Source of the DNA: an uncultured Gemmatimonas sp.
GTDB lineage: Bacteria; Gemmatimonadota; Gemmatimonadetes; Gemmatimonadales; GWC2-71-9
Reading direction: 5' to 3'
DNA: 64,000 nucleotides
Assembly (NCBI GenBank): GCA_964439025.1
Contig: CAYTMW010000009.1
Span: 35,749 to 99,748 of the forward strand
Positions within the stretch are counted from its first letter, which is position 1. Every line of letters starts with the position of its first letter. The translations under genes and the position numbers were made by a program. A model generated the notes under the pieces. The model worked only from the letters and a program-made list of their open reading frames with translations, was not told where the DNA came from and ran no database searches. This document shows, one piece after another, positions 5,153 through 59,341 of the stretch.

Positions 5153-5180
5153 CCCTGAGCCCTGAGCCCTGACCCCTGAC
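5153..5180. repeat. Heptamer tandem array (CCCTGAG)x2(CCCTGAC)x2
   Basis: Read directly from the sequence. Sits in the divergent spacer between the VIT1 start (5118) and the ECF sigma start (5227). Confidence 0.9.
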
Positions 5181-5226
5181 CACTCGCTGGTGCGACTATC
5201 TTCGCTTCCCCTGCATCTTTACAGTC

Positions 5227-5784
5227 GTGCTGACCAGGATCCTCGCGATGGATGCCTACGGGCTGGCGAACGCCGATAGCGTGCTGCCCGGTGTGAAGGC
5301 TGGAGACCCGGCTGCCCAGGAGGCGCTGTATCGCGCCTTCGAGGGGCCGGTCTACAACCTGGCGCGCCGGATCTGCCGCACCACCGAGGATGCCGAAGAC
5401 GTGCTGCAGGAGACGTTTTTCGAGGTGTTCAGAAGTATCGGGCGGTACCGGGGTGACGGCAGCCTCTGGGGGTGGGTCCGCACCATCGCGTCGAGCAAAG
5501 CGCTGATGCGCCTCAGGCGCAACAAGTACCGGGACACCGATGAGCTGCAGGACGACGTGACGCCGCTCCGCCGGGAAGACGCCGCGCTCCGCATGGATCT
5601 GGAGTCGGCACTGGAGCGGCTCTCTGAAACCGCCCGCGCGGTGGTCTGGCTGCACGACGTGGAGGGCTACACCCATGAGGAAATTGCGGGGATGATGGAT
5701 CGCACAGTGAGTTTTTCGAAGTCGCAGCTGGCGCGGGCCCACAGCCGGCTCCGCCGCTGGCTGCAGGAGGAGGTGCCGGCATGA
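5227..5784 (+). CDS. ECF (sigma-70 family) RNA polymerase sigma factor
   Basis: Region 2 'DAEDVLQETFFEVFRSIGRYRG...WGWVRTIA' and region 4 'VVWLHDVEGYTHEEIAGMM..SVSFSKSQLARA'. GTG start; an internal ATG (MDAYG) is also possible. Confidence 0.9.
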   Translation: MLTRILAMDAYGLANADSVLPGVKAGDPAAQEALYRAFEGPVYNLARRICRTTEDAEDVLQETFFEVFRSIGRYRGDGSLWGWVRTIASSKALMRLRRNKYRDTDELQDDVTPLRREDAALRMDLESALERLSETARAVVWLHDVEGYTHEEIAGMMDRTVSFSKSQLARAHSRLRRWLQEEVPA

Positions 5785-6392
5785 CGCATTTGACGATGGA
5801 ACAGCTGCTCACGCTGCGGGAGCCCGGGCTGGAGCCCGGTGTGCAGGAGTGGCGGGATCACGCCATGGCCTGCGAGCTCTGCCGCGCCGAGCTCGATCGG
5901 ATGGACCAGCGCGTCGCGCGGCTGCGCGCGCTGCCGACGCTCGCCCCGGCTCGCAATCGCTTTGCCGAAATCCGGGCGCGGGCCGAAGCCGACCGGTGGC
6001 GGCGGCGCGCGGTGGTGTTCTCCCTGAGCGGCCTCGCGCTGGCCGCTACGGTCGCGCTTGCGGTGGTGCTCGGGCCCGGCGCGCCCGACGCACCGGTCCA
6101 GACGCTCTCCGAGCAGCAGGAGCTCGACGACATCATCGCGCGGTCCCAGTCGCTCGAGGGCGCGATCCAGGCATACAACCCCGAACAGCGGGTCACCGAC
6201 GGCCGGACCGCCGTGGTGGCCGCATCGCTCGAGGATCGGCTGGCGCTGGTGGATCAGCAGCTTCAGCTGGTCGATATGATGGACCAGAGGGTGCGCCAGC
6301 AGGAGGCGCTCCGGCTCTGGCGGGAGCGCGTGGGTTTGCTGAACGCGCTGGTGGACGTGCATGCGACCCGCGCGCGCGCGGTCGGGTTCTGA
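5781..6392 (+). CDS. Anti-sigma factor (single-pass membrane protein)
   Basis: ATGA overlap with the sigma gene. N-terminus carries H..C..C (HAMACELC) and one TM segment (VVFSLSGLALAATVALAVVL). Confidence 0.7.
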   Translation: MTHLTMEQLLTLREPGLEPGVQEWRDHAMACELCRAELDRMDQRVARLRALPTLAPARNRFAEIRARAEADRWRRRAVVFSLSGLALAATVALAVVLGPGAPDAPVQTLSEQQELDDIIARSQSLEGAIQAYNPEQRVTDGRTAVVAASLEDRLALVDQQLQLVDMMDQRVRQQEALRLWRERVGLLNALVDVHATRARAVGF

Positions 6393-6410
6393 CCTATGAG
6401 GAGTGATTCC

Positions 6411-7310
6411 ATGTCGTTTCGTCTGATGTCTCTCGCTGCCCTCTCCCTTGTGTCGGCCTTTCCGGCCGCTGCCCCGGCCCAGGAGCGGCAGCCCGTTACC
6501 CGCGCCAGAATCTATTTCGATGGCGACACCACCCTGATGCGGGACCGCATGCGCGCCATCACCCAGCGCAGGGCGCGTCTCGGTGTCGTCGTGGACATGC
6601 GCGCGAGCGACACCGACTCGATCGGCGCCACGCTGCAGACCGTCACCCCGGGGGGTCCGGCGGCCAAAGCCGGTCTCAAGACCGGCGATATCGTCACCCG
6701 CATCGACGGGAAGTCGCTGATCGCGACCGACAACACCAGGAGCGGCTCCGATGAATCGCTGCCTGGCGTCCGGCTGGTGGAATACGCCACCCAGCTCCAG
6801 CCTAACGACACCATCAGCGTCGAGTACCGGCGCAGCGGTTCGCGCCACACCGCCTCGCTGGTCACCGGTGATGAGCTCATCAGGATGGAAGTCTTTCCCG
6901 ACGGCGGCGACTTCAACTTCAAGGTGCCCGGTGGGATCACGATGGAACGGACTCCGTTTCGCGGCATGATCCGCGGCGAGCAGCTCCCCGGCGGCGCCAT
7001 GTCCTACTCCCTCGCCTTCGGAGGGGGGCCCCTTGCCGATCTCGAGCTCGCGCCGCTCAATGCCGACCTCGGCCAGTACTTCGCTACCACCGAAGGCGTG
7101 CTGGTGATCAACGTCCCGAAGGAGTCCACCCTGGGGCTCAAGGGGGGCGACGTCATCCTGGGCATCGATGGCCGCAAGGCGACGGGCCCCGGCAGCCTGC
7201 TGCGCATTCTCCGCAGCTATGACCCCGGGGACAGCTTCAAGCTCGACATCATGCGGAACAAGACCCGGACCACCATCACCGGAAAACTGGCAACAAAAAA
7301 CAGGGAGTAG
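6411..7310 (+). CDS. Secreted protein with two PDZ domains
   Basis: Signal peptide MSFRLMSLAALSLVSAFPAAAPAQ, preceded by GAGGAG. Two 'GGPAAKAGLKTGDI...IDG' / 'LGLKGGDVILGIDG' PDZ-type segments. The track ORF starts 15 nt earlier (6396). Confidence 0.8.
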   Translation: MSFRLMSLAALSLVSAFPAAAPAQERQPVTRARIYFDGDTTLMRDRMRAITQRRARLGVVVDMRASDTDSIGATLQTVTPGGPAAKAGLKTGDIVTRIDGKSLIATDNTRSGSDESLPGVRLVEYATQLQPNDTISVEYRRSGSRHTASLVTGDELIRMEVFPDGGDFNFKVPGGITMERTPFRGMIRGEQLPGGAMSYSLAFGGGPLADLELAPLNADLGQYFATTEGVLVINVPKESTLGLKGGDVILGIDGRKATGPGSLLRILRSYDPGDSFKLDIMRNKTRTTITGKLATKNRE

Positions 7311-7373
7311 GCAGGAGGCAGGAGGCAGGAGGCAGGAGGCAGGAGGGAAAAGCTTACCCACCTGCCTCCTCCC
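7311..7373 (+). terminator. (GCAGGAG)x5 heptamer array plus complementary CCTGCCTCCT arm; a hairpin followed by a T-rich tract
   Basis: Array at 7311-7345. AGGAGGCAGG pairs with CCTGCCTCCT (7361-7370). The downstream sequence is cttcgcttttcgctattcttct. Starts 1 nt after the PDZ gene stop. Confidence 0.45.
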
Positions 7374-7419
7374 ACTTCGCTTTTCGCTATTCTTCTCCCC
7401 ACCGTCCAATCGGAGTTCC

Positions 7420-8391
7420 ATGTCCCGACGCGCCTACAGTCGATGCGCGCTGGCGCTGGTCCTGGCAGGCATCCCGCTCCCGCCTGCGCTCGAGGCGCAG
7501 CGGCTCCCGCCGTATTCCTCGATGAATCCGATGGTGCAGCGGCGGAGCGGGCTCGCGACGATTCCCTGGGTCGAGGAGGGGACACGATGGCGGGTGAGCT
7601 GGCTCACCGATTACGCCAGCACCATCGAGTACACCGACCTCCCGGCGATCCAGTATCTCCAGGACGCGGAGCTAGTGCGTTTGGAGCTGACCGCGGCGCG
7701 AACGGTCGGGAGTCGGGGGTTCGTGCTGGTCTCGGGAAGCCTGCAGGGCGCCTACGATGGATTCCTCGACGGGTTGCTCAATTGGTACCACGATTTCACC
7801 GGTCTCCAGGTCGCGGCGCGGAAGCTCCGCCCGAAGAACGAGTTCGCCTACAAGGTCGCATTCGCCGGCGGGCAGTCGGCTGAGTATTCGCCGTCGTCGG
7901 GGTTTCTGGGCGACGTGCGGATCGGGGCGGGCCTCAGGCACTCGAAGCACTGGATGACCGCGTTCTCCGTCACCCTCCCGACCAGCACCGGCCCCAAAGG
8001 CTTTCGGAAAGGTGTACCGTCGTTCAATGCGACGACGACGCTGCGGAGTAATTTTGCGGAACGGTTCACTTACGAAGGCACGCTGAGCGCCGGTTACACG
8101 GGGGCGCACGGGGACTTCAAGGACCTGCAGCATACTACATTCCTGATGGTGACCCAGGGCCTGCGGGGGAGGGTTACCGGCCCGCTCCATCTCTACGCCA
8201 ACCTCATCTACCACTCGGCGCTCTATCGCGACACCGGAGCGAAGGCCCTCGACGCCCGAGAGCTCACCATCGACACCGGCGGATTCCTGAGGTTCAAGCG
8301 CGGCCCCGAGTGGATCCTTGGACTGACCGAGGATCTCGAGCCGAGCGGCCCGGCGATCGACGTGGCCTTCAGGTTTGGGGCGCGCTGGTAA
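7420..8391 (+). CDS. Hypothetical outer-membrane-like protein (possibly DUF3187-like)
   Basis: Start at MSRRAYSRCALALVLAG (signal-like). Beta-rich composition, C-terminal ...AFRFGARW. The family call is from memory only. Confidence 0.6.
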   Translation: MSRRAYSRCALALVLAGIPLPPALEAQRLPPYSSMNPMVQRRSGLATIPWVEEGTRWRVSWLTDYASTIEYTDLPAIQYLQDAELVRLELTAARTVGSRGFVLVSGSLQGAYDGFLDGLLNWYHDFTGLQVAARKLRPKNEFAYKVAFAGGQSAEYSPSSGFLGDVRIGAGLRHSKHWMTAFSVTLPTSTGPKGFRKGVPSFNATTTLRSNFAERFTYEGTLSAGYTGAHGDFKDLQHTTFLMVTQGLRGRVTGPLHLYANLIYHSALYRDTGAKALDARELTIDTGGFLRFKRGPEWILGLTEDLEPSGPAIDVAFRFGARW

Positions 8392-8611
8392 AGAGAAACT
8401 GCGCCATCTGGTCCAGTAGGTATTGTTTCGCCTTCGGCTCGCGAAGATTGAGGGCGTAGTGGTTGATCAGCTGCTGCTGGTACTTGAGCCACTCGGCCCA
8501 GCAAACCGCGCAGATCTCCTGGAAGACCCGCTTGCCTAGGTCGTTCGGGAAGGGAGCGAAGGCTTGGGCTTCGCGGGCAAGCCGGCAGCGGGTGCAGGTG
8601 GTTTGCGGCAT
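8369..8611 (-). CDS. yggX: Fe(2+)-trafficking / oxidative-damage protection protein YggX
   Basis: 80 aa with 'C.RC....EAQAF.PFP..LGKRV..EIC..CWAEWLK.QQ.LINHY.LN' matching the YggX pattern. Confidence 0.85.
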   Translation of the reverse strand: MPQTTCTRCRLAREAQAFAPFPNDLGKRVFQEICAVCWAEWLKYQQQLINHYALNLREPKAKQYLLDQMAQFLFTSAPQT

Positions 8612-8627
8612 GCCGGAAAATAACGGA

Positions 8628-8793
8628 TGTCACCCTGAGCGAAGCGAAGGGGCCGGTCCCTCCGCGGGCTCGGGGCGGACTGGCCTCCGGGGGCGCTCGA
8701 GTTCGCGGTACTCACTAGCGCCCCAGTCGTCAGCCCGCTCCCTGCGCCCGCTGGAGGTCGCGCCGACCATCGCGTGGGTCACCCGGGTGATGA
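8628..8793 (+). mobile_element. MITE-like foldback repeat, copy A (degraded right end)
   Basis: Aligns by eye with 22807-22990 and the reverse complement of 62440-62605. Shared left end (T)GTCACCCTGAGCGAAGCGAAGGGG and core CTCCGCGGGCTCGG..GCGG.CTGGCCTCCGGGGGCGCTCGAGTTCGCGGTACTCACTAGCGCCCC.GTCGTCAGCCCGCTCCCTGCGCCCGCTG. Confidence 0.6.
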
Positions 8794-8936
8794 GTGGGGC
8801 TCGCCATAGGGGACGTCGGGCCGTGAGGGCTCCGCGTGAAGTGATGAGGTGTGTTGGCCCGCAGGCCCCGTGGGCGAGTCCCACTCGAGCCCGGGGGTGA
8901 GACGGCAGTTCGTGTTCACCGCGCACGTTCACGCAG

Positions 8937-9233
8937 TTACCGGACGTCCCCCCGCTGCAGCGCCTTGACGCCGCTCCGCGTCCCCAGCCCCGCCCCGAGC
9001 CCGACCACCGCCGCCGTCACCCCGGTGATCACGATCTTGACCAGCGGAAGCATCGTCAGCGGCATGACCAGGATTGCCGCACCCACCGCGGCAAGGACCG
9101 GAGCCGCCGGAGAGCGGATCGCGTCCACGAACCGCAGGCGCCGGCGCACGAAGCCGCGCGCAAAACCGAAGGCCAGAACGCCGCTCCCAACCGTCACAGT
9201 CAGGGCCAGTATCGCAATGATGGTGTTGATCAT
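8937..9233 (-). CDS. Small membrane protein, unknown function
   Basis: Start at MINTIIAILALTV with GGAGG 6 nt upstream. Two or three hydrophobic helices. Confidence 0.6.
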   Translation of the reverse strand: MINTIIAILALTVTVGSGVLAFGFARGFVRRRLRFVDAIRSPAAPVLAAVGAAILVMPLTMLPLVKIVITGVTAAVVGLGAGLGTRSGVKALQRGDVR

Positions 9234-9303
9234 AGAGCCTCCAAGGCCAAGGAATCGTGTTTCACTACGAAACATAGCCCCAACAGGTTTCACCGCGAGG
9301 CTG

Positions 9304-10302
9304 TCACCACCGGAGAGCGCAGCTCGCCCAGACAAAGCCCGATCCGAATGCCGTGAGCACCACCAGATTCCCCGGCAAAAGCCGCCCGGCCCGGACGCAC
9401 TCGTCGAGGGCGATCGGAATCGTCGCCGCGGTGGTATTTCCGTAGCGCTGGATGTTGTTGTAGGTCTGATCGTCCCGGAGCCCGAGCGTCTTCTGGATTG
9501 CCTCGGAGATCCTGAGGTTGGCCTGGTGCGCGATGAGCAGGGTGATGTCCTCCACCCCCGACCCGACTTTCGCCAACACGGTGCGCACCGATTCCGGCAT
9601 CCGGATCACGGCGTGACGGAAGACCTCTTTGCCGTCCATCGACAGCCAGCACTTTCCGTCGGCGATCTCGTTCGGCCAGTCCTCCAGACGCACCATCGCG
9701 CTCGGACCCTCCACCCAGAGTTTTTCCGCGTTGTCGCCCTGACTGTGCAGATCGAAGGCGGCAAAGCCCCGCCCTGCCTCCTCGGTCGCCCCGAGCAGGA
9801 CGGCTCCCGCGCCGTCGGCAAAGATCACCGCCGTATTGCGGCCCTCCGTCGAGAGCTCCATGCGGGTCGACTGGATTTCCTGGCCCACCACGAGGACCCG
9901 GCGGAAGGCGCCGGTCTGGATATAGGCGTCGGCGACGGACAGCGCGTACACGAATCCGGCGCACTGCATCCGGATGTCGATCGCGGGAATGGTCGCGGTG
10001 AGCCCGAGGGCGCGCTGGAGGAACACCCCATTACCGGGAGCAAAATGGTCTGGAGTGGAAGTGGCGTAGACGATCGCGTCGACACTGCCCGGCTCAAGCC
10101 CGGCCATCTCCAGCGCCTGAAGCGAGGCGTCCCGGCCGAAGCTCACGCCCGACTCCCCCGGAACGATCCAGTGCCGCTGCTGGATCCCGGTGCGGGCCCG
10201 GATCCATTCGTCCGAGGTATCCATGTAGCGCGACAGGTCGTCATTGGTGACGACCTGTGCGGGAACAGCGCGTCCGGTGCCGAGGATGACGCTGCGAGGC
10301 AT
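9304..10302 (-). CDS. fabH: Beta-ketoacyl-ACP synthase III
   Basis: 332 aa: 'TSDEWIRARTGI..R', active-site 'QCAGFVYAL', 'AHQAN.RI', 'YGNTTAATIPIAL', 'FGSGF.WA'. Confidence 0.92.
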   Translation of the reverse strand: MPRSVILGTGRAVPAQVVTNDDLSRYMDTSDEWIRARTGIQQRHWIVPGESGVSFGRDASLQALEMAGLEPGSVDAIVYATSTPDHFAPGNGVFLQRALGLTATIPAIDIRMQCAGFVYALSVADAYIQTGAFRRVLVVGQEIQSTRMELSTEGRNTAVIFADGAGAVLLGATEEAGRGFAAFDLHSQGDNAEKLWVEGPSAMVRLEDWPNEIADGKCWLSMDGKEVFRHAVIRMPESVRTVLAKVGSGVEDITLLIAHQANLRISEAIQKTLGLRDDQTYNNIQRYGNTTAATIPIALDECVRAGRLLPGNLVVLTAFGSGFVWASCALRW

Positions 10303-10309
10303 ACGGGAA

Positions 10310-10346
10310 GCTAACGGCTAACCGCTAACAGCCGTTAGCCGTTAGC
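10310..10346 (-). terminator. Hairpin built from GCTAACN heptamers (13-bp perfect stem)
   Basis: GCTAACGGCTAAC (10310-10322) is the exact reverse complement of GTTAGCCGTTAGC (10334-10346), with an 11-nt loop. Lies 2 nt downstream of the permease stop and 8 nt upstream of the fabH start. Confidence 0.4.
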
Positions 10347-10348
10347 TC

Positions 10349-11563
10349 TTACTCATACCGCAACGCGTCAATGGTATTCAACCGCGCCGCCCGCCGCGCC
10401 GGCCAGAGGCCGAAGAAAAGCCCGACCAGTGCGCTGAACAGGAACGCCACGCCGACCGCCGCCGGCGAAATGAAGGTATTCCAGCCGAGGAATTGCGACA
10501 TCGCCTTGGCGCCGGCCGCCCCCACCATGACTCCAAGCAAGCCGCCCATCATGCACAGCACCAGCGCTTCGATCAGGAACTGGAGCATGACGTTGATCTT
10601 GGTCGCGCCCAGCGCCTTGCGAATGCCGATCTCACGGGTCCGCTCGGTGACGGAGACCAGCATGATGTTCATGATGCCGATCCCGCCCACGACGAGCGAG
10701 ACCGCCGCGATGCTGCCCAGCAGCATCTTGAAGGTCTCGGTGGTCTGCTGCTGGGTGGCCAGAATGTCCTGCTGGTTCCGGATCTGGAAATCGTTGTCGC
10801 CGCCCGGGCGGATCTTGTGCTCCCGGCGCATCACCCGCTCGATGTCCACCATCCCCTGGTCCAGCGGCACCCCGTCCTTCACCTGCACCGCGATGGAGCG
10901 GAGCCGGTCGGTGCCGAACATCCGGAACCGCGCCGTGCCCAGCGGGATGAGGATCTGCTCGTCGGGGTTCTGGAAGGAGCCCGCGGCGCCCTTCTCGCTC
11001 AGGATGCCGATGACCTCGAAGGGCTGGCCCCGGATCTGGATGTTCGTGTTGATGAGCGACACGGGATGCACTCCGAGCATCGCCGGAATCGCCGAGCCGA
11101 GGACCGCGTACCGTTGCCGGGCCCCGTCATCGCCCGGGGTGAACATCCGTCCGTGCGTGATGGTGTAGTTCCTCACCTCGGGAAAATTCGAGGTGGTCCC
11201 CAGAATGTTGATGTTGAAATTCTGGTTGCCGTACTTGACCTGGAGCGACCGGTTGAGCTCCGGCTGCACCGCCGACAACAGCTGGGCATCCCGGCTGAGC
11301 GCGGTGGCGTCGTCCACGGTGAGGCTCACCCGGGTATCACTGGCGCGTCCTCCCATGAACGACTGCCCGGGATAGACGGTGAGCAGATTGGCGCCCATGG
11401 CCTTGATCCGCTCCTCGATGGCCCGCTGGGCCCCGGTGCCGAGCGCCACCACCGCGATGACCGCGCCCACCCCGATGATGATGCCGAGCATGGTGAGCCC
11501 GGCGCGCAGCTTGTTGGCCCGGATGCTGGCAAACGCGACCCGGATGGTTTCGCCGATCATCAT
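10349..11563 (-). CDS. MacB/FtsX-family ABC efflux permease
   Basis: 404 aa. N-terminus 'IRVAFASIRANKLRAGLTMLGIIIGV', large periplasmic domain, C-terminal FtsX helices 'ERTREIGIRKALGA'. Confidence 0.9.
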   Translation of the reverse strand: MMIGETIRVAFASIRANKLRAGLTMLGIIIGVGAVIAVVALGTGAQRAIEERIKAMGANLLTVYPGQSFMGGRASDTRVSLTVDDATALSRDAQLLSAVQPELNRSLQVKYGNQNFNINILGTTSNFPEVRNYTITHGRMFTPGDDGARQRYAVLGSAIPAMLGVHPVSLINTNIQIRGQPFEVIGILSEKGAAGSFQNPDEQILIPLGTARFRMFGTDRLRSIAVQVKDGVPLDQGMVDIERVMRREHKIRPGGDNDFQIRNQQDILATQQQTTETFKMLLGSIAAVSLVVGGIGIMNIMLVSVTERTREIGIRKALGATKINVMLQFLIEALVLCMMGGLLGVMVGAAGAKAMSQFLGWNTFISPAAVGVAFLFSALVGLFFGLWPARRAARLNTIDALRYE

Positions 11564-11568
11564 GGCGG

Positions 11569-16512: not shown

Positions 16513-16649
16513 GTCATTACGCAGCGGGGGCTCCGGTCGTTGAGGTCGTTGATTTGTATGAAGATACGCCCTTGGGGGCAGCCTGACGAACGGGGCAGGT
16601 GGTCACGTCAGACACCGGATGATCAACACCCGGAAAGGGTCGCGCGGGA

Positions 16650-18610: not shown

Positions 18611-18626
18611 ATTACTCCGCTATAGG

Positions 18627-18650
18627 CTATCAGCTATCGGTCCGGCTATC
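18627..18650. repeat. Left arm of a 24-bp perfect inverted repeat (GCTATC-type heptamers)
   Basis: CTATCAGCTATCGGTCCGGCTATC is the exact reverse complement of 19035-19058. Pairing extends to 18619 / 19066 with one mismatch. Confidence 0.9.
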
Positions 18651-46526: not shown

Positions 46527-46540
46527 CGGGGAGGCACACC

Positions 46541-47344: not shown

Positions 47345-47350
47345 CCGCTA

Positions 47351-50137: not shown

Positions 50138-50368
50138 GTCGCCTCGATGAAGTGGTTAAGAGGTAATCTGGGCGCTGACTGGAAACCGACCGGGTTCAAT
50201 ACGCGTCTGGACCTTGACGGTGTCAAGTGGCAACGCCGAACCGGCTGGCGAATCCCCCCACCTTGGGCCGCCGTAGTCATTATTATTAGGGTCGGTGTCC
50301 TACAGATTCGCGACGGCGCCATTCCGGTGTCCGTCGCGGCTTCGTCCTGCGGCAATGGAGCGGGTAAC

Positions 50369-51955: not shown

Positions 51956-51957
51956 GA

Positions 51958-52010
51958 GGGGTTGGGGGTTGGGGATTGGGGAACTCCCCCAGCCCCCAAC
52001 CCCCAAACCC
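51958..52010. terminator. Long imperfect G-run/C-run hairpin built from GGGGTT-type units between convergent genes
   Basis: GGGGTTGGGGGTTGGGGATTGGGG-AACT-CCCCCAGCCCCCAACCCCCAAACCC. Sits between the S41 stop (51955) and the M61 stop (52010-52012). Confidence 0.45.
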
Positions 52011-53833
52011 TACCCCCCCGTCGTCCCCGTCAATATCCCCCGCCTGATCCTCGCCGCCTTCGGGCTCGCCGTCGCATCCCACAAGAGCCGCGTGTCCACG
52101 ATGAGCTCCCGGCGTACCTCCATCTGCACCGTACGCTCGGCATCGTTCCGGCGGACCACGACGGGAATCGTGCTGCCGACGGCGTCGGCGTAGCGCGTCC
52201 GAAATTGCAGCGCGAAGTTTTCGTCTTTGACCTCGACCTCTCCGACCTTGAGGATCTGATCACCGGGCTCGATGCCGGCGTCGAAGGCCGCGCTGCCGCG
52301 CGTCACCGCGGTCACGAAGACGCGTAAGCTGTCGGACAGCGTGTTGACGCCCAGTCGCAGCTCGCGCGTGCTGTCGGCGACTTGCCTGATCCCGCCGAGG
52401 GCGCCCACCGTGGCCCAGGGAAACGGCTCCCTGCCATCGATATACTTCGCGGCGAACTCGGTGAACGGGCGCCCCCCCGCCGCGGCGGTGACCGCCGCCC
52501 ACCACTCCGCGGTGGTGAAGCCTTTCCCCTTCTTGTACGTGCTCTGGTAGAGACCCCGCATCACGTCGTCGAGCGAGCGGCGATTGTCGCTCCCGTCACG
52601 AATCAGGATGTCCAGCAGCAGTCCCGCGAGAGACCCTTTGTCGTAGTAGATGTCGCCGGTCCCATCGGTCGGATCGATCCAGCTGGTGAGCGACGCATCT
52701 TCGAGGGCGATCGGCACCGTCTGGTCGGTATGCTCCCGTTTGCCCTCGGTGACGCTCAGGAATACCGTCGAATCGAGAATGCCCCCGCGCACCAGTGCGA
52801 GATCGGCGTAGTAATCGGTGATCCCCTCGCTCACCCAGAGCAGCGTGGTCGGCTGCGGCTGGTCATATCGGTACGGCACCATCTCGGACGGGCGGAGCCG
52901 CTTCACGTTCCAGGCGTGGAAGATCTCGTGCGCAGTGATCGAGGCCAGCAGCGCGGTACCGATGAACTGCGGATTGTAGATGCCGACGTGCGAGTTCTGG
53001 TGCTCGAGGGCGCTCCCGCCGGCGAACGACGGCTCGAAGATCAGCATCGTGGTGTAGTGCTTCCACGGCGTCTCGCCGAAGATCTTGGACTGGGGCGGAA
53101 CCATCGCCTGAATCTGCTCCCAGAGCACTCGGCGCGCGGCGGTCCGGAGCTCTCCCGACGGGTAGCTCGCAAGGCGGTGCCAGACCCCCTCGACCTGGGC
53201 GCTGTCCACATCGAGGCGGCCGATAAAAAATGGCATGTCGACCAGGTCGTGATAGTTCGTGGCGCGGTAGCGCCCCGCGCCGCCGTCCCGGTCGAGACCG
53301 GTGACGATCTGCCAACCCGGTGCGGTGGTGACGCTCACCCGCGCGGGGAAATCCATCCCCTGGCCCTCAGGATATGGAAAGACGTTGGTGCCGTTGATCA
53401 GGAGAAAATCGGGTTTCGCCCAGGCCATCGCGTTGTCGAGGGTGTCGGCCAGGAAATCGAACTCCACCCGGACCGGGCCGGCCGCCACCGGCCGCACCCG
53501 CCAGGTGTCGTAGTCGGTCTTGTCCCAAACGAGCGGCCGCCCACCGCTGGTCGCCGAAAAACTGGAGACCTTCCGGGCATAGTTGTTGAGCTCGTACGCG
53601 CCCGGCGTCCACGCAGGGAGGGAAAGCAGTACCGGCCCCGCGCGCGGGACGTCGAACTCCATTCCGATGCGCACGCTGCGGCGCTCGGCGTTCGCCGAGT
53701 CGAAGATGAGCTCGTAGCGCAGATTCGTTGCGACGCCCGGAGCCCGCGCGGGACGCGGCTGCGCCATGAGCGGGACAGCGCAGCCAATCAGGAAAACCGC
53801 GGACGCGGCGAGAGAACGAAAGCGGCCTGACAC
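52010..53833 (-). CDS. M61-family metallopeptidase with C-terminal PDZ domain
   Basis: Signal/lipobox-like MSGRFRSLAASAVFLIGCA. Contains 'HEIFHAWNVKRLRP' (HExxH..WN) and a C-terminal PDZ 'AA.DAGI.PGD.I..V'. Confidence 0.88.
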   Translation of the reverse strand: MSGRFRSLAASAVFLIGCAVPLMAQPRPARAPGVATNLRYELIFDSANAERRSVRIGMEFDVPRAGPVLLSLPAWTPGAYELNNYARKVSSFSATSGGRPLVWDKTDYDTWRVRPVAAGPVRVEFDFLADTLDNAMAWAKPDFLLINGTNVFPYPEGQGMDFPARVSVTTAPGWQIVTGLDRDGGAGRYRATNYHDLVDMPFFIGRLDVDSAQVEGVWHRLASYPSGELRTAARRVLWEQIQAMVPPQSKIFGETPWKHYTTMLIFEPSFAGGSALEHQNSHVGIYNPQFIGTALLASITAHEIFHAWNVKRLRPSEMVPYRYDQPQPTTLLWVSEGITDYYADLALVRGGILDSTVFLSVTEGKREHTDQTVPIALEDASLTSWIDPTDGTGDIYYDKGSLAGLLLDILIRDGSDNRRSLDDVMRGLYQSTYKKGKGFTTAEWWAAVTAAAGGRPFTEFAAKYIDGREPFPWATVGALGGIRQVADSTRELRLGVNTLSDSLRVFVTAVTRGSAAFDAGIEPGDQILKVGEVEVKDENFALQFRTRYADAVGSTIPVVVRRNDAERTVQMEVRRELIVDTRLLWDATASPKAARIRRGILTGTTGG

Positions 53834-54042
53834 AATGAATCCTTTCCCCAGGTCGGAAATTGCGGCCGAAGGCGTGCCCGTCGGCTACGGGAAGTATCTC
53901 ACGATATGGCGGCGATTGACCAGCGGACCGGAGAGGCGGGAGGCGGCAAGCAGGCAGAGCGCCGCGAGAAGCGTCACGCCCCGGAGTCGGAAAGGAGGAG
54001 TCACTCTGTCACGACGGCGAGCGCGGCGGTGCGGTTTCAGGA

Positions 54043-54822
54043 CTACGATACCGCGCGCTTGTCGAACGTGCGGAGGCCCACCGCCATGAAGATCGCGCTG
54101 AGCAGCACCAGCGCCCCGGCGACGACCGCCTGATTCATGTGGGGCAGCGACGGCGTGAGGGCGCCCCGCATCCCCTCCGAGACATAGACCAGGGGATTCA
54201 CGAGGACGAGTACCTGCACGACGGGCACGGCCGAGAGCGCCTTCCAGGGATAGTACGCGCACCCGAAGAAGACCATCGGCGCGACGATCAGCCCGAACAT
54301 GAGGCCGATCTGCTCCCCGCGAATCGCGGTGCCGAGCAGGAGGCCGAATGCCGAGAAGGTGAAGGCGCCGAGCAGCGTCATCCCCACGACCACGCCGAAG
54401 TGCGCGAAGTCCAACCCCGCAATCGGCCCCATGATCAGGCGGGCGACCGGCAGCACGAAGAGCGCCGCGATCACGCCCTGGATGGTTCCGGCGATCACTT
54501 TCTCCAGCGCGATCACCGAGGTCGGCACCGGCGCGAGCAGCCGGTCCTCGATCTCCCGCGTCCACCCGAAGTCCGCCACCATCGGGAGAGCGACCGCCTG
54601 CACGCTGGCAAACGCCAGGCTCACCCCGAGGATGCCGGGAAGCAGGGCGCCGGTGTATCCGGACTGCACGAAGCCCATCTGCGGCAGGAGATAACCGAAG
54701 ACGATAGTGAACATGATCGGCTGCAGCGTGGTGCGGAGGAGGAAGAACGGGAGCTCCCTCGAAACCACGTGAATGTCCCGGCGCACCAGGGCGCCGAACA
54801 CCTTCCAGGGCGATGGGCTCAC
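54043..54822 (-). CDS. ABC-2-type exporter permease
   Basis: Six hydrophobic segments. GTG start overlaps the ATPase stop as GTGA. The track ORF extends to 54900. Confidence 0.8.
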   Translation of the reverse strand: MSPSPWKVFGALVRRDIHVVSRELPFFLLRTTLQPIMFTIVFGYLLPQMGFVQSGYTGALLPGILGVSLAFASVQAVALPMVADFGWTREIEDRLLAPVPTSVIALEKVIAGTIQGVIAALFVLPVARLIMGPIAGLDFAHFGVVVGMTLLGAFTFSAFGLLLGTAIRGEQIGLMFGLIVAPMVFFGCAYYPWKALSAVPVVQVLVLVNPLVYVSEGMRGALTPSLPHMNQAVVAGALVLLSAIFMAVGLRTFDKRAVS

Positions 54823-55841
54823 TCGAGCTTTCTCCCGGTGAGCGACACAAAGAGGGTTTCGAGGCTGGGCGGGGTGAGGCGGATGTCCACCGGTGCGCAA
54901 CCCGATTGCTCCAGGGCGCGCAGAATCGCCGGAAGCGTTTCACCGGCCCGCTCGGCATACATCGAGAGCTCCGATCCCCTGGCGCTCGCTTTCGTGACGC
55001 CGGGAATGCTGCCCGCGTCCTGCAGCACGCGCAGCGCCTCGCCATCGAGCGTGATCTGGATCAGCGTGGCTCCCGGTGCGCGAGCCTTCAGTCCGGCCGG
55101 CGTGTCGAGGGCGAGGAGCCTTCCACGATCGATGATCGCGAGCCGCTCGCAGAGCCGCTCGGCTTCTTCCATGTAGTGCGTGGTCATGATGATGGTGCGG
55201 CCCTGCTGGTGCAGCGAGCGGAGGATGTCCCACAGCGCGAGTCGTGCCTGGGGATCGAGCCCCACCGTCGGCTCGTCCAGAAAGAGAATCTCCGGCTCGT
55301 GAATGAGCGCCCGAGCGATCATCAGGCGCTGCTGCTGGCCGCCGGAGAGCTGGTCCACTCTCGCTTCGCCCCGGTCGCCGATTTCGAGCTGGTCGAGCAG
55401 CGCCTGCGCCCGCGGGAGGGAGACCGAGCGCGGAATGCCGAAATAGGCGGCATGGAAGAGCAGATTCTGGATGGCGGTGAGTTGCCGGTCGGGGTTGGGC
55501 TGTTGCGGAACCACGCCGATCCGCTGCTTGACGCCCACTGGGTCGCGGACGACGTCGATGCCCGCCACCGCGGCAGTTCCCGAGCTGGGCCGCACCCGGG
55601 TGGTCAGGACCCCGATGGTTGTCGTCTTCCCGGCGCCATTGGGTCCCAGCAACCCGAAGAATTCCCCCGGATGAACCGAGAGGTCGAGGCCGTCGAGAGC
55701 CTGAATTTCGCGCGCACCAGATGAGGCGGAGTGCGCAAGGGGTCCGCCGGGAGCCATTTGTGGACCGGAGGGGCCGCGGCGCCGCACCGGGGGCGCCGGA
55801 TACACCTTCTTGAGCGCCCGGGTCTCGATCGCTGGTCCCAT
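54819..55841 (-). CDS. ABC transporter ATP-binding protein (ABC-2/DrrA-like)
   Basis: Start at MGPAIETRAL. Walker A GPNGAGKTT, signature LSGGQQQRL, Walker B LFLDEPT. Confidence 0.9.
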   Translation of the reverse strand: MGPAIETRALKKVYPAPPVRRRGPSGPQMAPGGPLAHSASSGAREIQALDGLDLSVHPGEFFGLLGPNGAGKTTTIGVLTTRVRPSSGTAAVAGIDVVRDPVGVKQRIGVVPQQPNPDRQLTAIQNLLFHAAYFGIPRSVSLPRAQALLDQLEIGDRGEARVDQLSGGQQQRLMIARALIHEPEILFLDEPTVGLDPQARLALWDILRSLHQQGRTIIMTTHYMEEAERLCERLAIIDRGRLLALDTPAGLKARAPGATLIQITLDGEALRVLQDAGSIPGVTKASARGSELSMYAERAGETLPAILRALEQSGCAPVDIRLTPPSLETLFVSLTGRKLE

Positions 55842-56050
55842 GCGCGATAATCTAAATCCCCTGGTGCGGCCGCCACAGGCTATCGTGTTATGATGCAACT
55901 GTTTCGGGGCTTTGCACGCCAGAAGAAGAGCAGCGAGGCGCCGATCGAGCCGCTGCTTACCCCGATCCTCGATCCGCTCCGGCAGCATCCCCGGTTCGCG
56001 AGGCTGGTGAGGGGTCTCGGCTTGTCGGAGAGGGTGCTGAGATGAAAAGC

Positions 56051-56101
56051 GTGAACGCTGAACGGTGAACCGGAAAAGCCTCGACCGATAGCCGGACCGA
56101 T
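56051..56101. repeat. (GTGAACG/CTGAACG/GTGAACC) heptamer array followed by GATAGCCGGACCGAT
   Basis: Heptamers at 56051-56071. The 15-mer at 56087-56101 is identical to 19035-19049. Confidence 0.85.
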
Positions 56102-56127
56102 CGCCGGTAGCTGAAGGCTGCTAGCGC

Positions 56128-57417
56128 TCAATTTCCCGGTGAATTTCCGAACCGGGGATTGACGGTGTTCGCAAACTTCGACCCGAAGGTGTAGCTCAGC
56201 CCCACCGACATTTCCCACTGGTACGAGGTCTGCAGCTGCTTGAGCCGCAGCAGAATCTCTTCGTCGGTAATATCCGCCTTGGCCAGTGACAGCTGATCCC
56301 GGATCCTGGCGTAGCTCGCGAACATGTTGAAGTTGAGTCCCCGCACGATCCGCACCTCTCCGAACGCGAACACCGAGATCCGGTTCTTCGAGAAGTCGTC
56401 CAGATAGGTCGAGCCGACCAGCTGGGCTTCCAGCCTGCCCCAAGGCTGGGTCGCCGCCCCCGCGACGGTCAACCGGTTGACCGGCCGCTTCTCCACCAGC
56501 TTGTCATAGATCGTGGTGTCGCGATAATTCTCGTAATTGAGCCCGAGCGAATAAATGAACACGAATTGCCGGCGCGACGATTCGCTGTAGGGAAATACGT
56601 TGTACTCGATTCCGGGCTCGACCTTAAGGAGGAGATCGTAGTTTTCGCGGGTGGATCGCTCGCCGGTCACTTCGAGCCCCAGCGACCACTGCTTGGTGAG
56701 ACTCCGTACCAGAAGGCCGCCCAGGGCATAGCTGCTGGTCGTGCGCTCGAAGACCTCATTCTCGAGCTGGAAGGAGCTGTGACTCCGGTTTCCTTCGATC
56801 TCGGTGCGGAACTTCCATTTGTCGCTGACCCGCGACGCTTCGAGCGATCCGTTCAGGTGGGTCTGCTTGGTCTGCGATTCGCCGGCGAAGAAGCCGCTCA
56901 TCCCGACCTCGAAGACCCAGAGATTCCAGGGATCCTTCGGTTGCTGCGCGGGCGCGGTGGCCGAGCCGGCGGGGGCGGAGAAGGTGAGCTGGAACCGATC
57001 GGCGAGGATTCCTTTCGCGACGTATCGCGCGAGTCCGAGCGCGATTCGCTGGGTCTGCCGGCGCCGGATCTCGTCGTCGGTCTCCGATTGCTGGGTCGTG
57101 AACCGGAGCTCGTCGTCCGCATTGAGGAACGCGCGCAGGCCGATGAACCGCAGCACATACTCCTGGCCCCCTCCGGTGCTCTGCGAGGTGACGATGAGAT
57201 GCACGTCGGCATCGGCGCGGTCCCGCACCCAGTTGACGTAGGTGATTTCCCGCCGCAGGTGATCGAAGTCGCAGAAGGTGTTGCAGTCGAGAAAGACCCG
57301 CGTGGCCTCACCAGCCGGCGGAGTGGCCGGCGTGCCCTGCCGGGCCGCCAGCGGGAGCGGCGTAATGGCACAGTAGAGCACCACGACTGCCGCCGGAACG
57401 AACCGGTGCATGCGCAT
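56128..57417 (-). CDS. Hypothetical outer-membrane beta-barrel-like protein
   Basis: Start at MRMHRFVPAAVVVLYCAITPLPLAA. Long alternating beta-strand-like C-terminal region. Family not recognised with confidence. Confidence 0.65.
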   Translation of the reverse strand: MRMHRFVPAAVVVLYCAITPLPLAARQGTPATPPAGEATRVFLDCNTFCDFDHLRREITYVNWVRDRADADVHLIVTSQSTGGGQEYVLRFIGLRAFLNADDELRFTTQQSETDDEIRRRQTQRIALGLARYVAKGILADRFQLTFSAPAGSATAPAQQPKDPWNLWVFEVGMSGFFAGESQTKQTHLNGSLEASRVSDKWKFRTEIEGNRSHSSFQLENEVFERTTSSYALGGLLVRSLTKQWSLGLEVTGERSTRENYDLLLKVEPGIEYNVFPYSESSRRQFVFIYSLGLNYENYRDTTIYDKLVEKRPVNRLTVAGAATQPWGRLEAQLVGSTYLDDFSKNRISVFAFGEVRIVRGLNFNMFASYARIRDQLSLAKADITDEEILLRLKQLQTSYQWEMSVGLSYTFGSKFANTVNPRFGNSPGN

Positions 57418-57744
57418 CGGAAAGCTCGCAATCTCGGGGAAAACTTGATCCAGGTCAGGACTATGACGCCATTCGGCCCGAATAGGTTGCAACCGGGCCA
57501 ATCCGTGCGTTCTCCGCCTTCCGGACCTGGATAGCGCTCATTGCCGTGTCAACACAGTATTGACCGCCACAAGATCCGCCCGCACCGCCGTCACCTTCCC
57601 ATTGGTGCGGATAAACCGGTAGCGCGCGGAGCGCCGTCCGAAAACTCCGTCGCCCAGATGAACGAGCGGCTGTGCTGCGCGCTGAGAGGCGCGGCGGCCG
57701 TGAGGCAGAGAATTGCGAGCTGGAGGCGCATGCTGGAGACTAGT

Positions 57745-57798
57745 CGCGAAGACGCGAAGACGCGAAGTGAATAACCTTCCCTCCCCGCGTCCCCGCGT
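57745..57798. repeat. (CGCGAAGA)x3 and partly complementary (CCCCGCGT)x2 octamer arrays
   Basis: Read directly from the sequence. Lies in the spacer upstream of the M28 peptidase gene. Confidence 0.85.
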
Positions 57799-57877
57799 CC
57801 CACTCGGATGCTCGCGGCGATGGACGAGTAGAAGCGGCACCACTATCCTACCCGCAGTCTCTTTCCGGGCCCATTCG

Positions 57878-59284
57878 ATGATCCGCCGTCCCCTTGTGCT
57901 ACCCCTCGCCCTCCTGGCATGGACGCTGGTGCTTCCCCTCTCGGCACAGAACCGGAGAGCCGCGGCGCAGGCCAACCCCATCCAGCGCGAGTACCAGGCG
58001 GCCGCCGACCGGATCATCGCCGCGGCAACCGCCGACAGCGCGGCATGGAACAAGCTGGCCGAACTCACCGACGGCTTCGGCCATCGGCTGAGCGGCAGCG
58101 AGGCGCTGGAGCAGGCCATCGACTGGGTCATCGCCCGGATGAAGTCCGAAGGATTGGAGAACGTCCGCGGGGAGCCGGTGATGGTGCCCCGCTGGGTCCG
58201 GGGCCACGAGCAGGCTGAGCTACTGGAGCCCCGCTACGCCAAGCTGTCGATGCTCGGCCTTGGGCAAAGCGTCGGCACGCGCCGCGGCGGGATCCAGGCG
58301 GAGGTGCTGGTCGTCTCGAGCTTCGACGAGCTCAAGGCGCACGCGGCCGAGGCGCGGGGAAGAATCGTGCTGTTCGACGTGCCGTTTACGAATTATGGCC
58401 AGACGGTGCGGTATCGCGGGACCGGCGCGGTCGAGGCGGCAAAGGTCGGCGCGGTGGCGATGCTGCTCCGGTCGGTCGGACCGTTCGGGATGCGGACGCC
58501 GCACACCGGCTCGATGCAGCCGTACGATTCGACGGTGACGCGGATTCCCGCCGCGGCGATCACGATGGAAGACGCCGCGCTGCTGCACCGCATGCAGCAG
58601 CGCGGCCAGAAGATCGTCGTCCGGCTCGAGATGGAAGCCCAGATGCTTCCCGATTCGCCCTCGCGCAATGTGGTGAGCGAGCTCACCGGGCGGGAGAAGC
58701 CGGCGGAGGTGGTGGTCTTCGGCGGCCACATTGATTCCTGGGACGTGGGCACCGGAGCGATGGATGACGCCGGCGGTGTGGTCATCGCCTGGGAGGCCGT
58801 ACGCCTGCTGCAGAAGCTCGGGCTCCGCCCCCGGCGCACCATCCGCGTCGTCGGATGGACCAACGAGGAGAACGGCGGGCGCGGCGGCCAAGCCTATCGC
58901 GACGCGCACCGGAGCGAGCTCGTCGGCCACGTGGCGGCGATCGAGTCCGACGGCGGGACATTCAAGTTCCGCGGCTTCGGCTTCACCGGCAGCGATTCCG
59001 CCTACGCGATGGTCCGGCAGATCGCCAAGCTGCTCCGGCCGCTGGGCGGGGATTCGGTGACCGTGGGAGGCGGCGGCGCCGACATCGGGCCGATCATGGC
59101 GCTCGGCGTCCCCGGCCTCTCGCACAACGTGGATGGCACCCGATACTTCTGGTACCATCACACCGACGCCGACACCGTGGACAAGATCGACCCCCGGGAG
59201 CTGGCCGAGAACGTGGCGGCGATGGCGATCATGGCGTATGTACTGGCTGACCTGCCCAGTCCGCTACCACGTATTAGGCAGTAG
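57878..59284 (+). CDS. M28-family aminopeptidase, secreted
   Basis: Start at MIRRPLVLPLALLAWTLVLPLSAQ. Contains 'FGHRLSGSEALE.AI.W' and 'VVFGGHIDSWD.GTGA.DD..G'. Confidence 0.85.
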   Translation: MIRRPLVLPLALLAWTLVLPLSAQNRRAAAQANPIQREYQAAADRIIAAATADSAAWNKLAELTDGFGHRLSGSEALEQAIDWVIARMKSEGLENVRGEPVMVPRWVRGHEQAELLEPRYAKLSMLGLGQSVGTRRGGIQAEVLVVSSFDELKAHAAEARGRIVLFDVPFTNYGQTVRYRGTGAVEAAKVGAVAMLLRSVGPFGMRTPHTGSMQPYDSTVTRIPAAAITMEDAALLHRMQQRGQKIVVRLEMEAQMLPDSPSRNVVSELTGREKPAEVVVFGGHIDSWDVGTGAMDDAGGVVIAWEAVRLLQKLGLRPRRTIRVVGWTNEENGGRGGQAYRDAHRSELVGHVAAIESDGGTFKFRGFGFTGSDSAYAMVRQIAKLLRPLGGDSVTVGGGGADIGPIMALGVPGLSHNVDGTRYFWYHHTDADTVDKIDPRELAENVAAMAIMAYVLADLPSPLPRIRQ

Positions 59285-59341
59285 ACAGTAGGCAGTAGGC
59301 AAGAGCTGTTCACTACTGCCAATTGCCCACTCCCTATTGCC
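59277..59341. repeat. (GGCAGTA-like)x4 array and inverted (TANTGCC-like) period-7 array; the central 8-bp stem may act as a terminator
   Basis: GGCAGTA GACAGTA GGCAGTA GGCAAGA at 59277-59304. TACTGCC AATTGCC CACTCCC TATTGCC at 59314-59341. The M28 TAG stop lies inside the first array. Confidence 0.85.

Follow-up and report, generated by a model that had tools for sequence, protein, structure and literature searches.

The DNA considered here, hereafter the window, is a stretch of 64,000 nucleotides (nt) from an uncultured Gemmatimonas sp. (assembly GCA_964439025.1, contig CAYTMW010000009.1, positions 35,749 to 99,748 of the forward strand), with a GC content of 62-71% and an average of ~67%. 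It carries a family of short tandem arrays, mostly of heptanucleotide units, in the spacers between its genes. The arrays were detected with Tandem Repeats Finder (TRF) and with our own period scans, run at a strict and a lenient threshold. TRF returned 18 rows of period 7 and six of period 8, which match nearly all of the arrays that a preliminary description of this DNA had listed, at the same coordinates. That list had nevertheless missed an array at 39083-39117 and a degenerate one at 43526-43569, and what it gave as a tandem array at 8907-8941 is instead a loose scatter of GTTCAC. At the strict threshold, our scan of the window found ten period-7 and two period-8 arrays and none at periods 4-6 and 9-12, with a mean of 0.03 period-7 arrays in 30 third-order Markov simulations. 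At the lenient threshold, 17 period-7 arrays compare with 0.8 in simulated sequence, an excess of about 20-fold, and three period-8 arrays compare with 0.18; periods 4-6 and 9 show no enrichment over chance. The arrays are thus non-random and period 7 is dominant, both as first described. At least 12 unrelated units coexist in the window, and the proposal that identical units recur at unlinked loci more often than chance allows was also borne out: five locus pairs share a unit exactly against 0.69 expected for letter-permuted units (P<0.0005), and ten pairs share one with at most one mismatch against 3.8 (P=0.004). The window contains no tRNA genes and no Rfam matches at gathering score.

Genes were called with our own codon-usage log-odds model, trained on the clearest open reading frames (ORFs), which assigns 90.6% of the window to coding sequence. 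The intergenic 9.4% accounts for 14 of 17 arrays of period 7 and for each of the three of period 8, in agreement with the earlier claim that the arrays are intergenic and abut start or stop codons. Typically, an array starts 0-3 nt past a stop codon, includes the stop, or finishes 7-12 nt ahead of a start codon. Two of the three period-7 arrays outside intergenic DNA lie in frame within low-complexity protein loops. One of them, (GGGGAAG)x5 at 39083-39117 on the minus strand, which reads (CTTCCCC)x5 on the forward strand, encodes the loop GKGEGGRGRGE of a pyridoxal-phosphate (PLP)-decarboxylase. The other, (CCAGCAT)x4.7 at 40434-40466 (+), had been counted among the intergenic arrays as (CCAGCAT)x5 at 40434-40468, but it lies in coding sequence, in the low-complexity N-terminal part of an M20 peptidase gene, where it encodes part of a linker rich in S, P and Q that is equal in length in the L091 ortholog. 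The arrays are therefore able to invade low-complexity protein segments. In same-strand hairpins, units that bear a stop codon, as judged by eye, mainly occupy the 3' arm (~9 versus 1-2 cases), and a 7-mer with a stop codon places stops in every frame after three copies.

Structure prediction divides the arrays into two forms, namely single, strand-biased arrays predicted to be unstructured, found immediately behind stops or ahead of starts, and inverted pairs predicted to form hairpins of 18-28 bp, found where gene ends converge and in spacers between same-strand genes. Among the former, (CCCTGAG/CCCTGAC)x4.6 (TRF) at 5150-5181 occupies the divergent spacer between genes 3997-5118(-) and 5227-5784(+) and gives no hairpin (z -1.0); its unit, as CCCCTGA, also stands upstream of the cyclophilin gene in the relative L081. 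The purine-only array (GCAGGAG)x5.4 at 7309-7346 (+) begins at the TAG stop of gene 6450-7310 and is likewise predicted to be unstructured as RNA (z -0.98). On the minus strand at 19947-19999, (CCCCCAA)x7.6, as written on the mRNA strand, fills the 72-nt spacer between a DUF255 stop and the cyclophilin ATG, which follows 7 nt downstream, with a predicted RNA structure of 0 kcal/mol. At the convergent junction between the DUF1707 and endonuclease III genes, the first unit of (GTGAGCG)x4.1 at 22771-22799 (+) contains the TGA stop of gene 22121-22774 (DUF1707), and (TGCTGGA)x3.9 at 22990-23016 (-) lies 1 nt past the stop of the endonuclease III gene 23018-23650(-). The RNAs of (CCCCCAA)x8, (GCAGGAG)x5, (GTGAGCG)x4 and (UGCUGGA)x4 are all predicted to be essentially unstructured. 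The adjacent arrays (GCTAACN)x3 and (GCCGATA)x3.3 at 26893-26913 and 26915-26937 (-), 3 nt past the stop of the GAF gene 26941-27396(-), fold weakly (z -1.3). Further along, (GATAGCC)x3 on the gene strand (3.1 copies by TRF) at 42567-42588 (-) overlaps the TAG stop of a TetR gene and ends 8 nt ahead of the DinB ATG, and the degenerate GCTATCN-type array at 43526-43569 lies in the sigma/TetR divergent spacer. Finally, (GTGAACG)x2.7 (TRF 56052-56070) stands beside a degenerate GATAGCC/GGACCGAT array at 56051-56107 (-), 20 nt past the stop of gene 56128-57501(-).

The claim that many arrays are inverted pairs with strong predicted hairpins was likewise supported. The pair (GCTAACG)x3/(GTTAGCC)x2.4 (TRF) at 10310-10346 (10310-10329 and 10330-10346, minus strand) fills a 46-nt same-strand spacer between a stop at 10349 and a start at 10302, and folds with -30.1 kcal/mol (10300-10352, minus strand, z -6.7). 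The convergent M20/DinB junction at 41960-42019 holds the octamer array (GAGGCAAG)x3.2 at 41960-41985 and its partial inverse partner CTTTGCCTCG at 42010-42019 (-26.7 kcal/mol, z -3.6, plus strand). At the convergent S41/M61 peptidase junction, which they fill, (GGGGTTG)x3.4 at 51958-51981 and (CCCCCAA)x3 at 51986-52018 give -46.9 kcal/mol (z -4.2) on the plus strand and -50.3 kcal/mol on the minus strand (51950-52020). The hairpin of (GGCAGTA)x3.9 and a degenerate (TANTGCC)x4 at 59275-59341 (+; TRF 59275-59301) overlaps the M28 peptidase stop at 59282-59284 and has a predicted -31.5 kcal/mol (59270-59350, plus strand, z -4.45). The octamer hairpin (CGCGAAGA)x2.9/(TCCCCGCG)x2.5 at 57745-57767 and 57782-57801 (-) is strand-specific: the region 57735-57810 folds with -41.4 kcal/mol on the minus strand (z -5.5) and with just -24.5 kcal/mol on the plus strand, as the arms are complementary only via G-U pairs on the minus strand, which points to an RNA rather than a DNA structure.

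The preliminary description had considered the hairpins plausible as terminators or RNA-processing stems. A terminator scan of the array hairpins in the window found no T-run behind any of them, so that they cannot be classical intrinsic (Rho-independent) terminators, and their stems of 18-28 bp are longer than those of usual terminators. Processing stems are still plausible by analogy with known systems. The same holds for T-runs at gene ends in general, as the scan of 5000-24900 and 41000-60500 found no classical hairpin-plus-T terminator there, and terminator-like sites numbered five against 7.8 expected in shuffled sequence, and three against 10.2, in the two scans. Judging from the sequence, this lineage may end its transcripts by other means.

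Pfam domains and the nearest matches in a genome collection, at 66% identity or less, place the window in Gemmatimonadales. Relatives of the window were found via protein searches as a graded series of metagenome contigs, and include 11 syntenic loci (L081-L091) with marker proteins 81-92% identical to those of the window. The period-7 density per 100 kb is 26.6 in the window and 26.2 in these close relatives, against 5.6 in more distant Gemmatimonadales loci and 3.2 in Acidobacteriota loci, and the best explanation is that the arrays are a genome-wide trait of this Gemmatimonadales clade, seated at gene boundaries. Across the relatives, the spacer positions of the arrays are kept, while the copy number, from two to eight at orthologous arrays, and often the unit differ. 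Upstream of the cyclophilin ATG, a heptamer array is found in four relatives (L081/L082, L083 and L084) and a degenerate one in L085, always of G-poor units: (CCCCCAA)x8 in the window versus (CCCCTGA)x4, (CCTCTGA)x4 and CCACCGA in the relatives. At the endonuclease III/DUF1707 junction, an array stands right behind each stop in all five of the loci that cover it. Past the DUF1707 stop, the four copies of GTGAGCG in the window correspond to two in L083, to (GTGAACG)x8 in L084 and x5 in L085, and to (GGGAACG)x2 in L081; past the endonuclease III stop, TGCTGGA is also found in L083 and L085, with (GGGGAAG)x7 instead in L081. In the spacer orthologous to 42567-42588, L086 has (GTCTTCA)x3, L090 has (GCCTTCA)x6 and L091 has no array, and at the place of the degenerate array 43526-43569 all three carry clean GCTATCN arrays. 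The two-array arrangement of 56051-56107 recurs in L086 and L090, where the convergent partner is a protein-kinase gene missing from the window.

The hairpin persists at orthologous junctions even though both of its arms change unit. At the M61/S41 junction, the arms are (GGGGGTT)/(CCCCCAA) in the window, (GGGGTCA)x8/(CCCTGAN) in L086, (TGGTTCG)/(CGAACCA) in L090 and (GCGGATA)/(TATCCGC) in L091, and the predicted folds are -46.9, -57.6, -50.0 and -54.6 kcal/mol, respectively (z -4.2 to -11.6). The L086 unit GGGGTCA agrees with the window's GGGGTTG at 5/7 positions, and those of L090 and L091 are unrelated to it. The hairpin is likewise kept and its units replaced in the MacB-to-KASIII spacer and in the GAF spacer, with strong predicted hairpins in L084 (-38.4 kcal/mol) and L085 (-56.4 kcal/mol) in the latter. 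The spacers orthologous to 10310-10346 carry hairpins made from GCCGTCA/TGATGGC in L084 and L085, the M20/DinB junction of L091 one from (GTGGTNN)/(CACTAAC), and related arrays, both of octamers and of heptamers, occur in the L090 spacers that correspond to 57745-57801. At the place of 59275-59341, L090 has (GGCAGTN)/(CTGCCGA), L086 a small non-array hairpin, and L091 neither array nor hairpin. Presence also varies at the TonB/HEAT junction, which measures 6 nt in the window and holds a hairpin of 74-82 nt in L086 and L090, and at the GAF spacer, which is 8 nt long and array-free in L083 and 57-113 nt long elsewhere.

Copy-number polymorphism between strains, which the preliminary description had suggested looking for, is seen in relatives. 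Four contigs from different samples, whose M61 flanks are 99.95-100% identical, have (GGGGTCA) in 8, 7, 7 and 8 copies, variant units included. As near-identical strains differ by one unit, slippage acts in place, which goes against the earlier view that the arrays had a templated or mobile origin rather than one by slippage. Other observations speak for a part of that view: one inverted pair is part of a cassette that some relatives have and others lack (see below), and units are shared exactly between different spacers of one genome in 10% of pairs against 3.6% between non-orthologous spacers of different genomes (14% at orthologous spacers). When one mismatch is allowed, the corresponding figures are 17.7% and 10.7%, with 43% at orthologous spacers. 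Examples of units recurring at non-orthologous spacers are GAGGCAAG (window 41960 and L091 2609-2829), TGCTGGA (window 22990 and 40434, L090 8509-8598) and CGCGAAGA (window 57745 and L090 1902-1972).

The cassette lies between the genes for a DUF6941 protein and an HD protein. A (GCTATCN) array at 18621-18650, 10 nt ahead of the start of the HD gene (18610), and a (GATAGCN) array at 19035-19078 (TRF 19033-19070), 2 nt from the stop of gene 19081-19491(-), contain a perfect inverted repeat of 25 nt (18626-18650, the exact reverse complement of 19035-19059). The repeat forms the two ends of the cassette and encloses a frameshifted pseudogene of the 23S_rRNA_IVP/S23p family (PF05635) at 18650-19035 (+), recognised in two frames by tblastn with the intact gene of L083 (E 4e-18), which is annotated as PF05635, a four-helix-bundle family. 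In L081/L082 the site is empty, with a 20-nt spacer CTGATAGCTATCGGAGTGAC; in L083 and L084 the gene is intact and stands between (GCCGTCA)/(GGCTGAA) arrays, and in L085 it is frameshifted and stands between (GCTATCN)/(GATAGCN) arrays. Seven further metagenome contigs have the cassette site, with cassette proteins 56-99% identical to that of L083 and neighbouring genes ~85-94% identical to those of the window, which suggests either that the cassette changes at a rate several times that of its neighbours or that it has been exchanged. The commonest unit across the spacers of the window, of L084 and of L085/L090 is in each case the one that flanks that genome's cassette. Within the first 91 loci, PF05635 genes occur at this orthologous site only.

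For a more general survey, metagenome contigs were scanned with the cassette protein alignment, which gave 80 loci (L092-L171) with a host GC content of 33-70%. At least one period-7 array lies within 200 nt of the gene ends in 56 of the 80 loci, and 99 arrays in the 36 kb near PF05635 genes compare with 25 in 150 kb elsewhere, ~16-fold the local background. Period 7 again prevails, with 124 arrays versus 11, 17, 3 and 4 for periods 5, 6, 8 and 9. Where arrays stand on both sides, the downstream unit is the inverse complement of the upstream one in 27 of 34 loci. The cassettes sit exactly between the stop of one gene and the start of the next, typically in the order upstream stop, (AGGACTG)n, Shine-Dalgarno-like motif, ATG, cassette ORF, stop, (CAGTCCT)n and next ATG, as in L137 (493-963), L107 (1381-1927) and L165 (1436-1890). 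No rRNA was found with Rfam in any of the 20 loci checked. Cassette proteins of locus pairs that share a unit are 62% identical versus 46%, so that arrays and gene travel together. No paper linking PF05635 genes outside rRNA with heptamer arrays came up in full-text searches of incomplete coverage; the cassette-array link is a new lead, and the phenomenon is otherwise of a known kind in a new lineage.

Several other features of the locus deserve mention. An element of 157-184 nt resembling a miniature inverted-repeat transposable element (MITE) is dispersed at 8628-8784 (+), 22808-22991 (+) and 62439-62604 (-), with terminal inverted repeats of ~14 nt (TGTCACSCTGAGCG ... CGCTCAGCGTGACA) and a highly conserved core, and has no Rfam match even at E<=1 around 8600-8960. 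Its 22.8-kb copy, which lies between the two heptamer arrays of the endonuclease III/DUF1707 junction, is missing from the orthologous spacer of every relative. The likeness, seen by eye, of the flank 40419-40433 to the end of this copy (22975-22991) was treated as a coincidence because the 40.4-kb array is coding. Nearby, the 27-nt divergent spacer between the DUF255 and DUF1707 start codons (22094-22120, CCGCCAATTCTACTAGCTTTGCGCCGC) is nearly invariant in all relatives, unlike the array spacers around it, which turn over; it is probably a shared region for regulation or initiation that is under tight constraint. Three array-free segments are also strongly conserved in relatives and are candidates for regulatory RNAs or promoters: the 237-nt leader from the S41 peptidase to a TonB-dependent receptor gene (50138-50374), a 95-nt divergent spacer containing TTTAATTTCGGGACCGGGCAATCGAA (27397-27491) and the leader of an ECF (extracytoplasmic function) sigma factor gene (16513-16649), none of which has an Rfam hit.

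At 55761-56127 and 53834-54042, relatives have a protein-kinase gene of ~800 aa and a gene of 430-460 aa (DUF6923 in L086), respectively, both of which the window lacks; the kinase-junction arrays are still present in the window at 56051-56107. On the minus strand at 57502-57730, a signal-peptide-like N-terminal part (MRLQLAILCLTAAAPLSAQ...) is apparently in another frame than the ORF 56128-57501, which reflects either a frameshift (pseudogene) or a sequencing error. The TetR-family gene and its AT-rich upstream region (42568-43645) lie in the 42-44 kb interval, where the GC content falls to 61.6% against ~67% elsewhere. Recent acquisition was rejected, as the arrangement is conserved in L086, L090 and L091 and is therefore old in the clade. 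In L091, a palindromic element (GTCATTGCGAGGGGCCGAAGGCCCCGAAGCAATCTC...) stands at 4132-4209, where other relatives carry GCTATCN/CGTTGAC arrays, and different small elements may compete for identical gene-boundary niches.

With moderate confidence, we favour a reading in which slippage-driven arrays at gene boundaries work at the RNA level in their hairpin form, as a double-stranded stem, and provide structure-free sequence in their single form. The arrays grow and shrink in place through replication slippage and keep their position while copy number and often unit turn over, both as observed in relatives. By analogy with the intervening sequences of 23S rRNA, RNase III could cleave the hairpin form, a long stem of 18-28 bp; alternatively, the stem might define or protect 3' ends where classical terminators are absent from gene ends. 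In either case, the hairpins would separate or insulate neighbouring cistrons, and single arrays would be leaders or trailers free of structure. A hairpin squeezed in between one stop and the start that follows, like that at 10310-10346, could instead couple translation. Units would spread between loci via gene conversion and via movement or decay of the S23p cassette. The inverted-array architecture brackets the S23p/IVP cassette here and in many other bacteria.

A number of points weigh against this reading. Each functional step in it is drawn by analogy, and some hairpins, such as that at 10310-10346, end ~8 nt ahead of the next start and fit translational coupling equally well. Roughly half of the arrays form no hairpin, and an "unstructured spacer" is a weak functional claim for arrays that could be neutral. 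Only one of the ~17 array loci in the window adjoins a PF05635 gene, and the cassette therefore cannot directly account for most arrays. On the side of the data, the pair statistics of unit sharing are not independent, short-read metagenome assemblies can miscount repeats, gene starts rest on our own codon-usage model and may be off, and several of the 80 PF05635 loci are duplicates, with an effective number nearer 70.

The closest rival, which we hold to be possible though clearly less probable and which is not exclusive of the other readings, takes the arrays as footprints of a mobile element. Inverted arrays would be the ends of S23p/IVP cassettes, gene-less hairpins internally deleted miniatures and single arrays the result of further decay, and recurring units would mark copies of one cassette family. 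The presence or absence of the cassette at an orthologous site, in two or three types, fits this well, as do the divergence of its proteins beside better-conserved neighbours, the co-variation of units with protein similarity, and the agreement between the commonest unit and the cassette-flanking unit in three of the genome groups compared; a gene-less hairpin in L090 (16491-16564) also resembles cassette ends. However, the window has one cassette for its ~17 array loci, and GCAGGAG, GTGAGCG, CCAGCAT and other units have no cassette counterpart in the data examined. No transposase or target duplication was identified, cassettes may have inserted into pre-existing arrays, which would reverse the causality, and orthologous persistence together with slippage explains most loci with no need for mobility. 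In its most general form, to be taken just as tentatively, the proposal is that inverted heptamer arrays are the terminal stems of widespread, so far undescribed cassettes resembling intervening sequences, with an S23p/PF05635 gene between arrays, lying between protein-coding genes of many phyla and probably cut by RNase III from polycistronic transcripts; gene-less hairpins and single arrays would then be miniature or decayed derivatives or preferred landing sites. If true, this would explain the limited vocabulary of units that recur within and between genomes, and might extend to the tandem heptamer arrays of cyanobacteria and Beggiatoaceae.

A neutral origin appears rather unlikely. The replication machinery of the clade would slip preferentially on 7-nt units, in line with a polymerase-slippage proposal that is already in the literature (Mrazek 2007, as presented in later papers); arrays would survive where 7-nt indels are harmless, and small hairpins already present would give rise to inverted pairs through intrastrand template switching, all of it devoid of function. 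The one-unit changes between strains, the wide range of copy numbers, the frequent presence or absence at a given spacer, and the near-absence of arrays from coding DNA, with two in-frame arrays tolerated in low-complexity protein loops, are what such a process would leave behind. It accounts less well for the M61/S41 hairpin, retained at one junction in four lineages with arm complementarity kept throughout, although the L090 and L091 units are unrelated to the window's, for the array upstream of cyclophilin, which persists in the covering relatives and is always G-poor, if degenerate in L085, or for the units common to unlinked loci, more so within than between genomes.

A role at the DNA level, through G-quadruplexes, cruciforms, protein binding or slippage-driven switches (contingency loci) tuning promoter or leader spacing, is improbable: (GGGGTTG)x8 and the G-rich arms could form quadruplexes, for which Xanthomonas and Nostoc heptamers have been investigated (PMC4692102), copy number is strain-variable and several arrays stand between divergent genes or just upstream of starts, but only a minority of the units are G-rich, the arms at 57735-57810 are complementary through G-U pairs on one strand alone, which favours RNA, many arrays come after stop codons, and the genes concerned encode housekeeping enzymes and not surface or host-interaction proteins. 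Chance or an assembly artefact is ruled out because the architecture recurs across independent assemblies from many samples.

Together with its syntenic relatives, the window offers a clean natural experiment, in which array position and hairpin structure are kept and the sequence is replaced fast. The link to S23p intervening sequences, which in rRNA have stems that RNase III is proven to cut, gives the favoured reading a testable form, that of processing or insulating stems that are spread in part by selfish cassettes. If true, this model would join heptamer repeats and S23p intervening-sequence elements, two poorly understood phenomena, and would bear on the punctuation of operon transcripts in high-GC bacteria that lack classical terminators; if wrong, the arrays would still be of use as markers for typing strains of an uncultured lineage from soil.

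Arrays of heptanucleotides were first recognised in cyanobacteria in 1990 and in bacteria more widely in 2007. Repetitive extragenic palindromic (REP) sequences and bacterial interspersed mosaic elements (BIMEs) are enterobacterial intergenic palindromes found at 3' ends or inside operons and thought to affect mRNA stability; REPs share a single imperfect-palindrome consensus, present in many copies, and are mobilised by REP-associated tyrosine transposases (RAYTs). The arrays resemble them as short intergenic palindromic elements, and differ in that the window builds its stems from tandem 7-mers with many unrelated sequences. No RAYT gene came to light in the window, and the idea that the ORF 42568-43278 beside (GCTATCG)x3 might be one was rejected, as it encodes a TetR regulator that is conserved in relatives. 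The units of the short tandemly repeated repetitive (STRR) sequences of cyanobacteria, reportedly described by Mazel in 1990, are said to be CCCCAGT, TTGGTCA and CAACAGT. None of them matches a unit of the window, the nearest being CCCCTGA, which by eye differs from CCCCAGT at 3/7 positions in any rotation or strand; neither is the host a heterocystous cyanobacterium, as the best protein matches are to Gemmatimonadales genomes. Membership of the STRR family was rejected on both counts.

No report of heptamer arrays in Gemmatimonadota was found in the literature searched. The preliminary description was aware of no equivalent for this kind of high-GC genome, but the view that none is described is wrong, as intergenic heptamers have been reported for Burkholderia, Xanthomonas and Actinobacteria. 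According to the accounts in PMC4679880 and PMC4692102, Mrazek, Guo and Shah (2007) found an excess of long simple-sequence repeats (LSSRs) with units of 5-11 nt, among which intergenic heptanucleotides dominate, in many bacteria and proposed polymerase slippage. As far as those accounts go, the window's arrays are of the same kind, with three or more head-to-tail tandem copies of a 5-11-nt, mostly 7-nt, unit (by TRF and our own scans), an excess over composition-matched random sequence that is strongest at period 7, units of a length that is no multiple of three largely confined to non-coding DNA, copy-number change by slippage between close strains of the relatives, and a scattered phylogeny that includes high-GC hosts. 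The window differs from these LSSRs, as there described, in its several unrelated units, many of them paired into hairpins, and in the positions kept among relatives.

In the 65%-GC genome of Xanthomonas, arrays of GGGAATC lie between genes, a short way from starts and stops (Rehm et al. 2015, PMC4692102); they form inverted pairs at convergent genes, and their position is kept between species with a variable length and sequence. Nostoc has GGGGA(T/C)T arrays, and the G-rich heptamers of both genera have been investigated as quadruplex-forming (PMC4692102). The window shares the intergenic location near starts and stops, the inverted convergent pairs and the conserved position with length variation. 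Unlike the one dominant G-rich unit family of Xanthomonas and Nostoc, it has at least 12 units, of which only GGGGTTG is G-rich, and none of them fits GGGNATC or GGGGAYT. The TAACTGA arrays described by MacGregor (2015, PMC4679880) lie upstream of start codons in marine Beggiatoaceae, cyanobacteria and Bacteroidetes. These and the STRR sequences resemble the present arrays as intergenic heptamers directly upstream of starts, with a unit common to distant taxa and mixed arrays within a spacer; the units and the host phylum differ, and TAACTGA arrays are almost all direct, with one inverted set among 170 in BOGUAY (PMC4679880).

The nearest counterpart of the cassette is found in the intervening sequences (IVSs) with an S23p ORF in the 23S rRNA of Leptospira, Coxiella, Xanthomonas and Brucella (PMC4990558). 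The IVS of Coxiella has a 28-bp terminal stem and three (GACAGAT) heptamers, the number of which varies between strains (Warrier 2016, PMC4990558), and RNase III cuts its stem at the first repeat (PMC4990558). Unlike these IVSs, the cassette described here lies between protein-coding genes and not in helix 25 or 45 of a 23S rRNA gene. It nonetheless shares with them a PF05635 ORF within terminal inverted repeats, which form a stem of ~25-28 bp with tandem heptamers inside it, as well as the variable number of those heptamers, the presence/absence polymorphism and the decay of the ORF.

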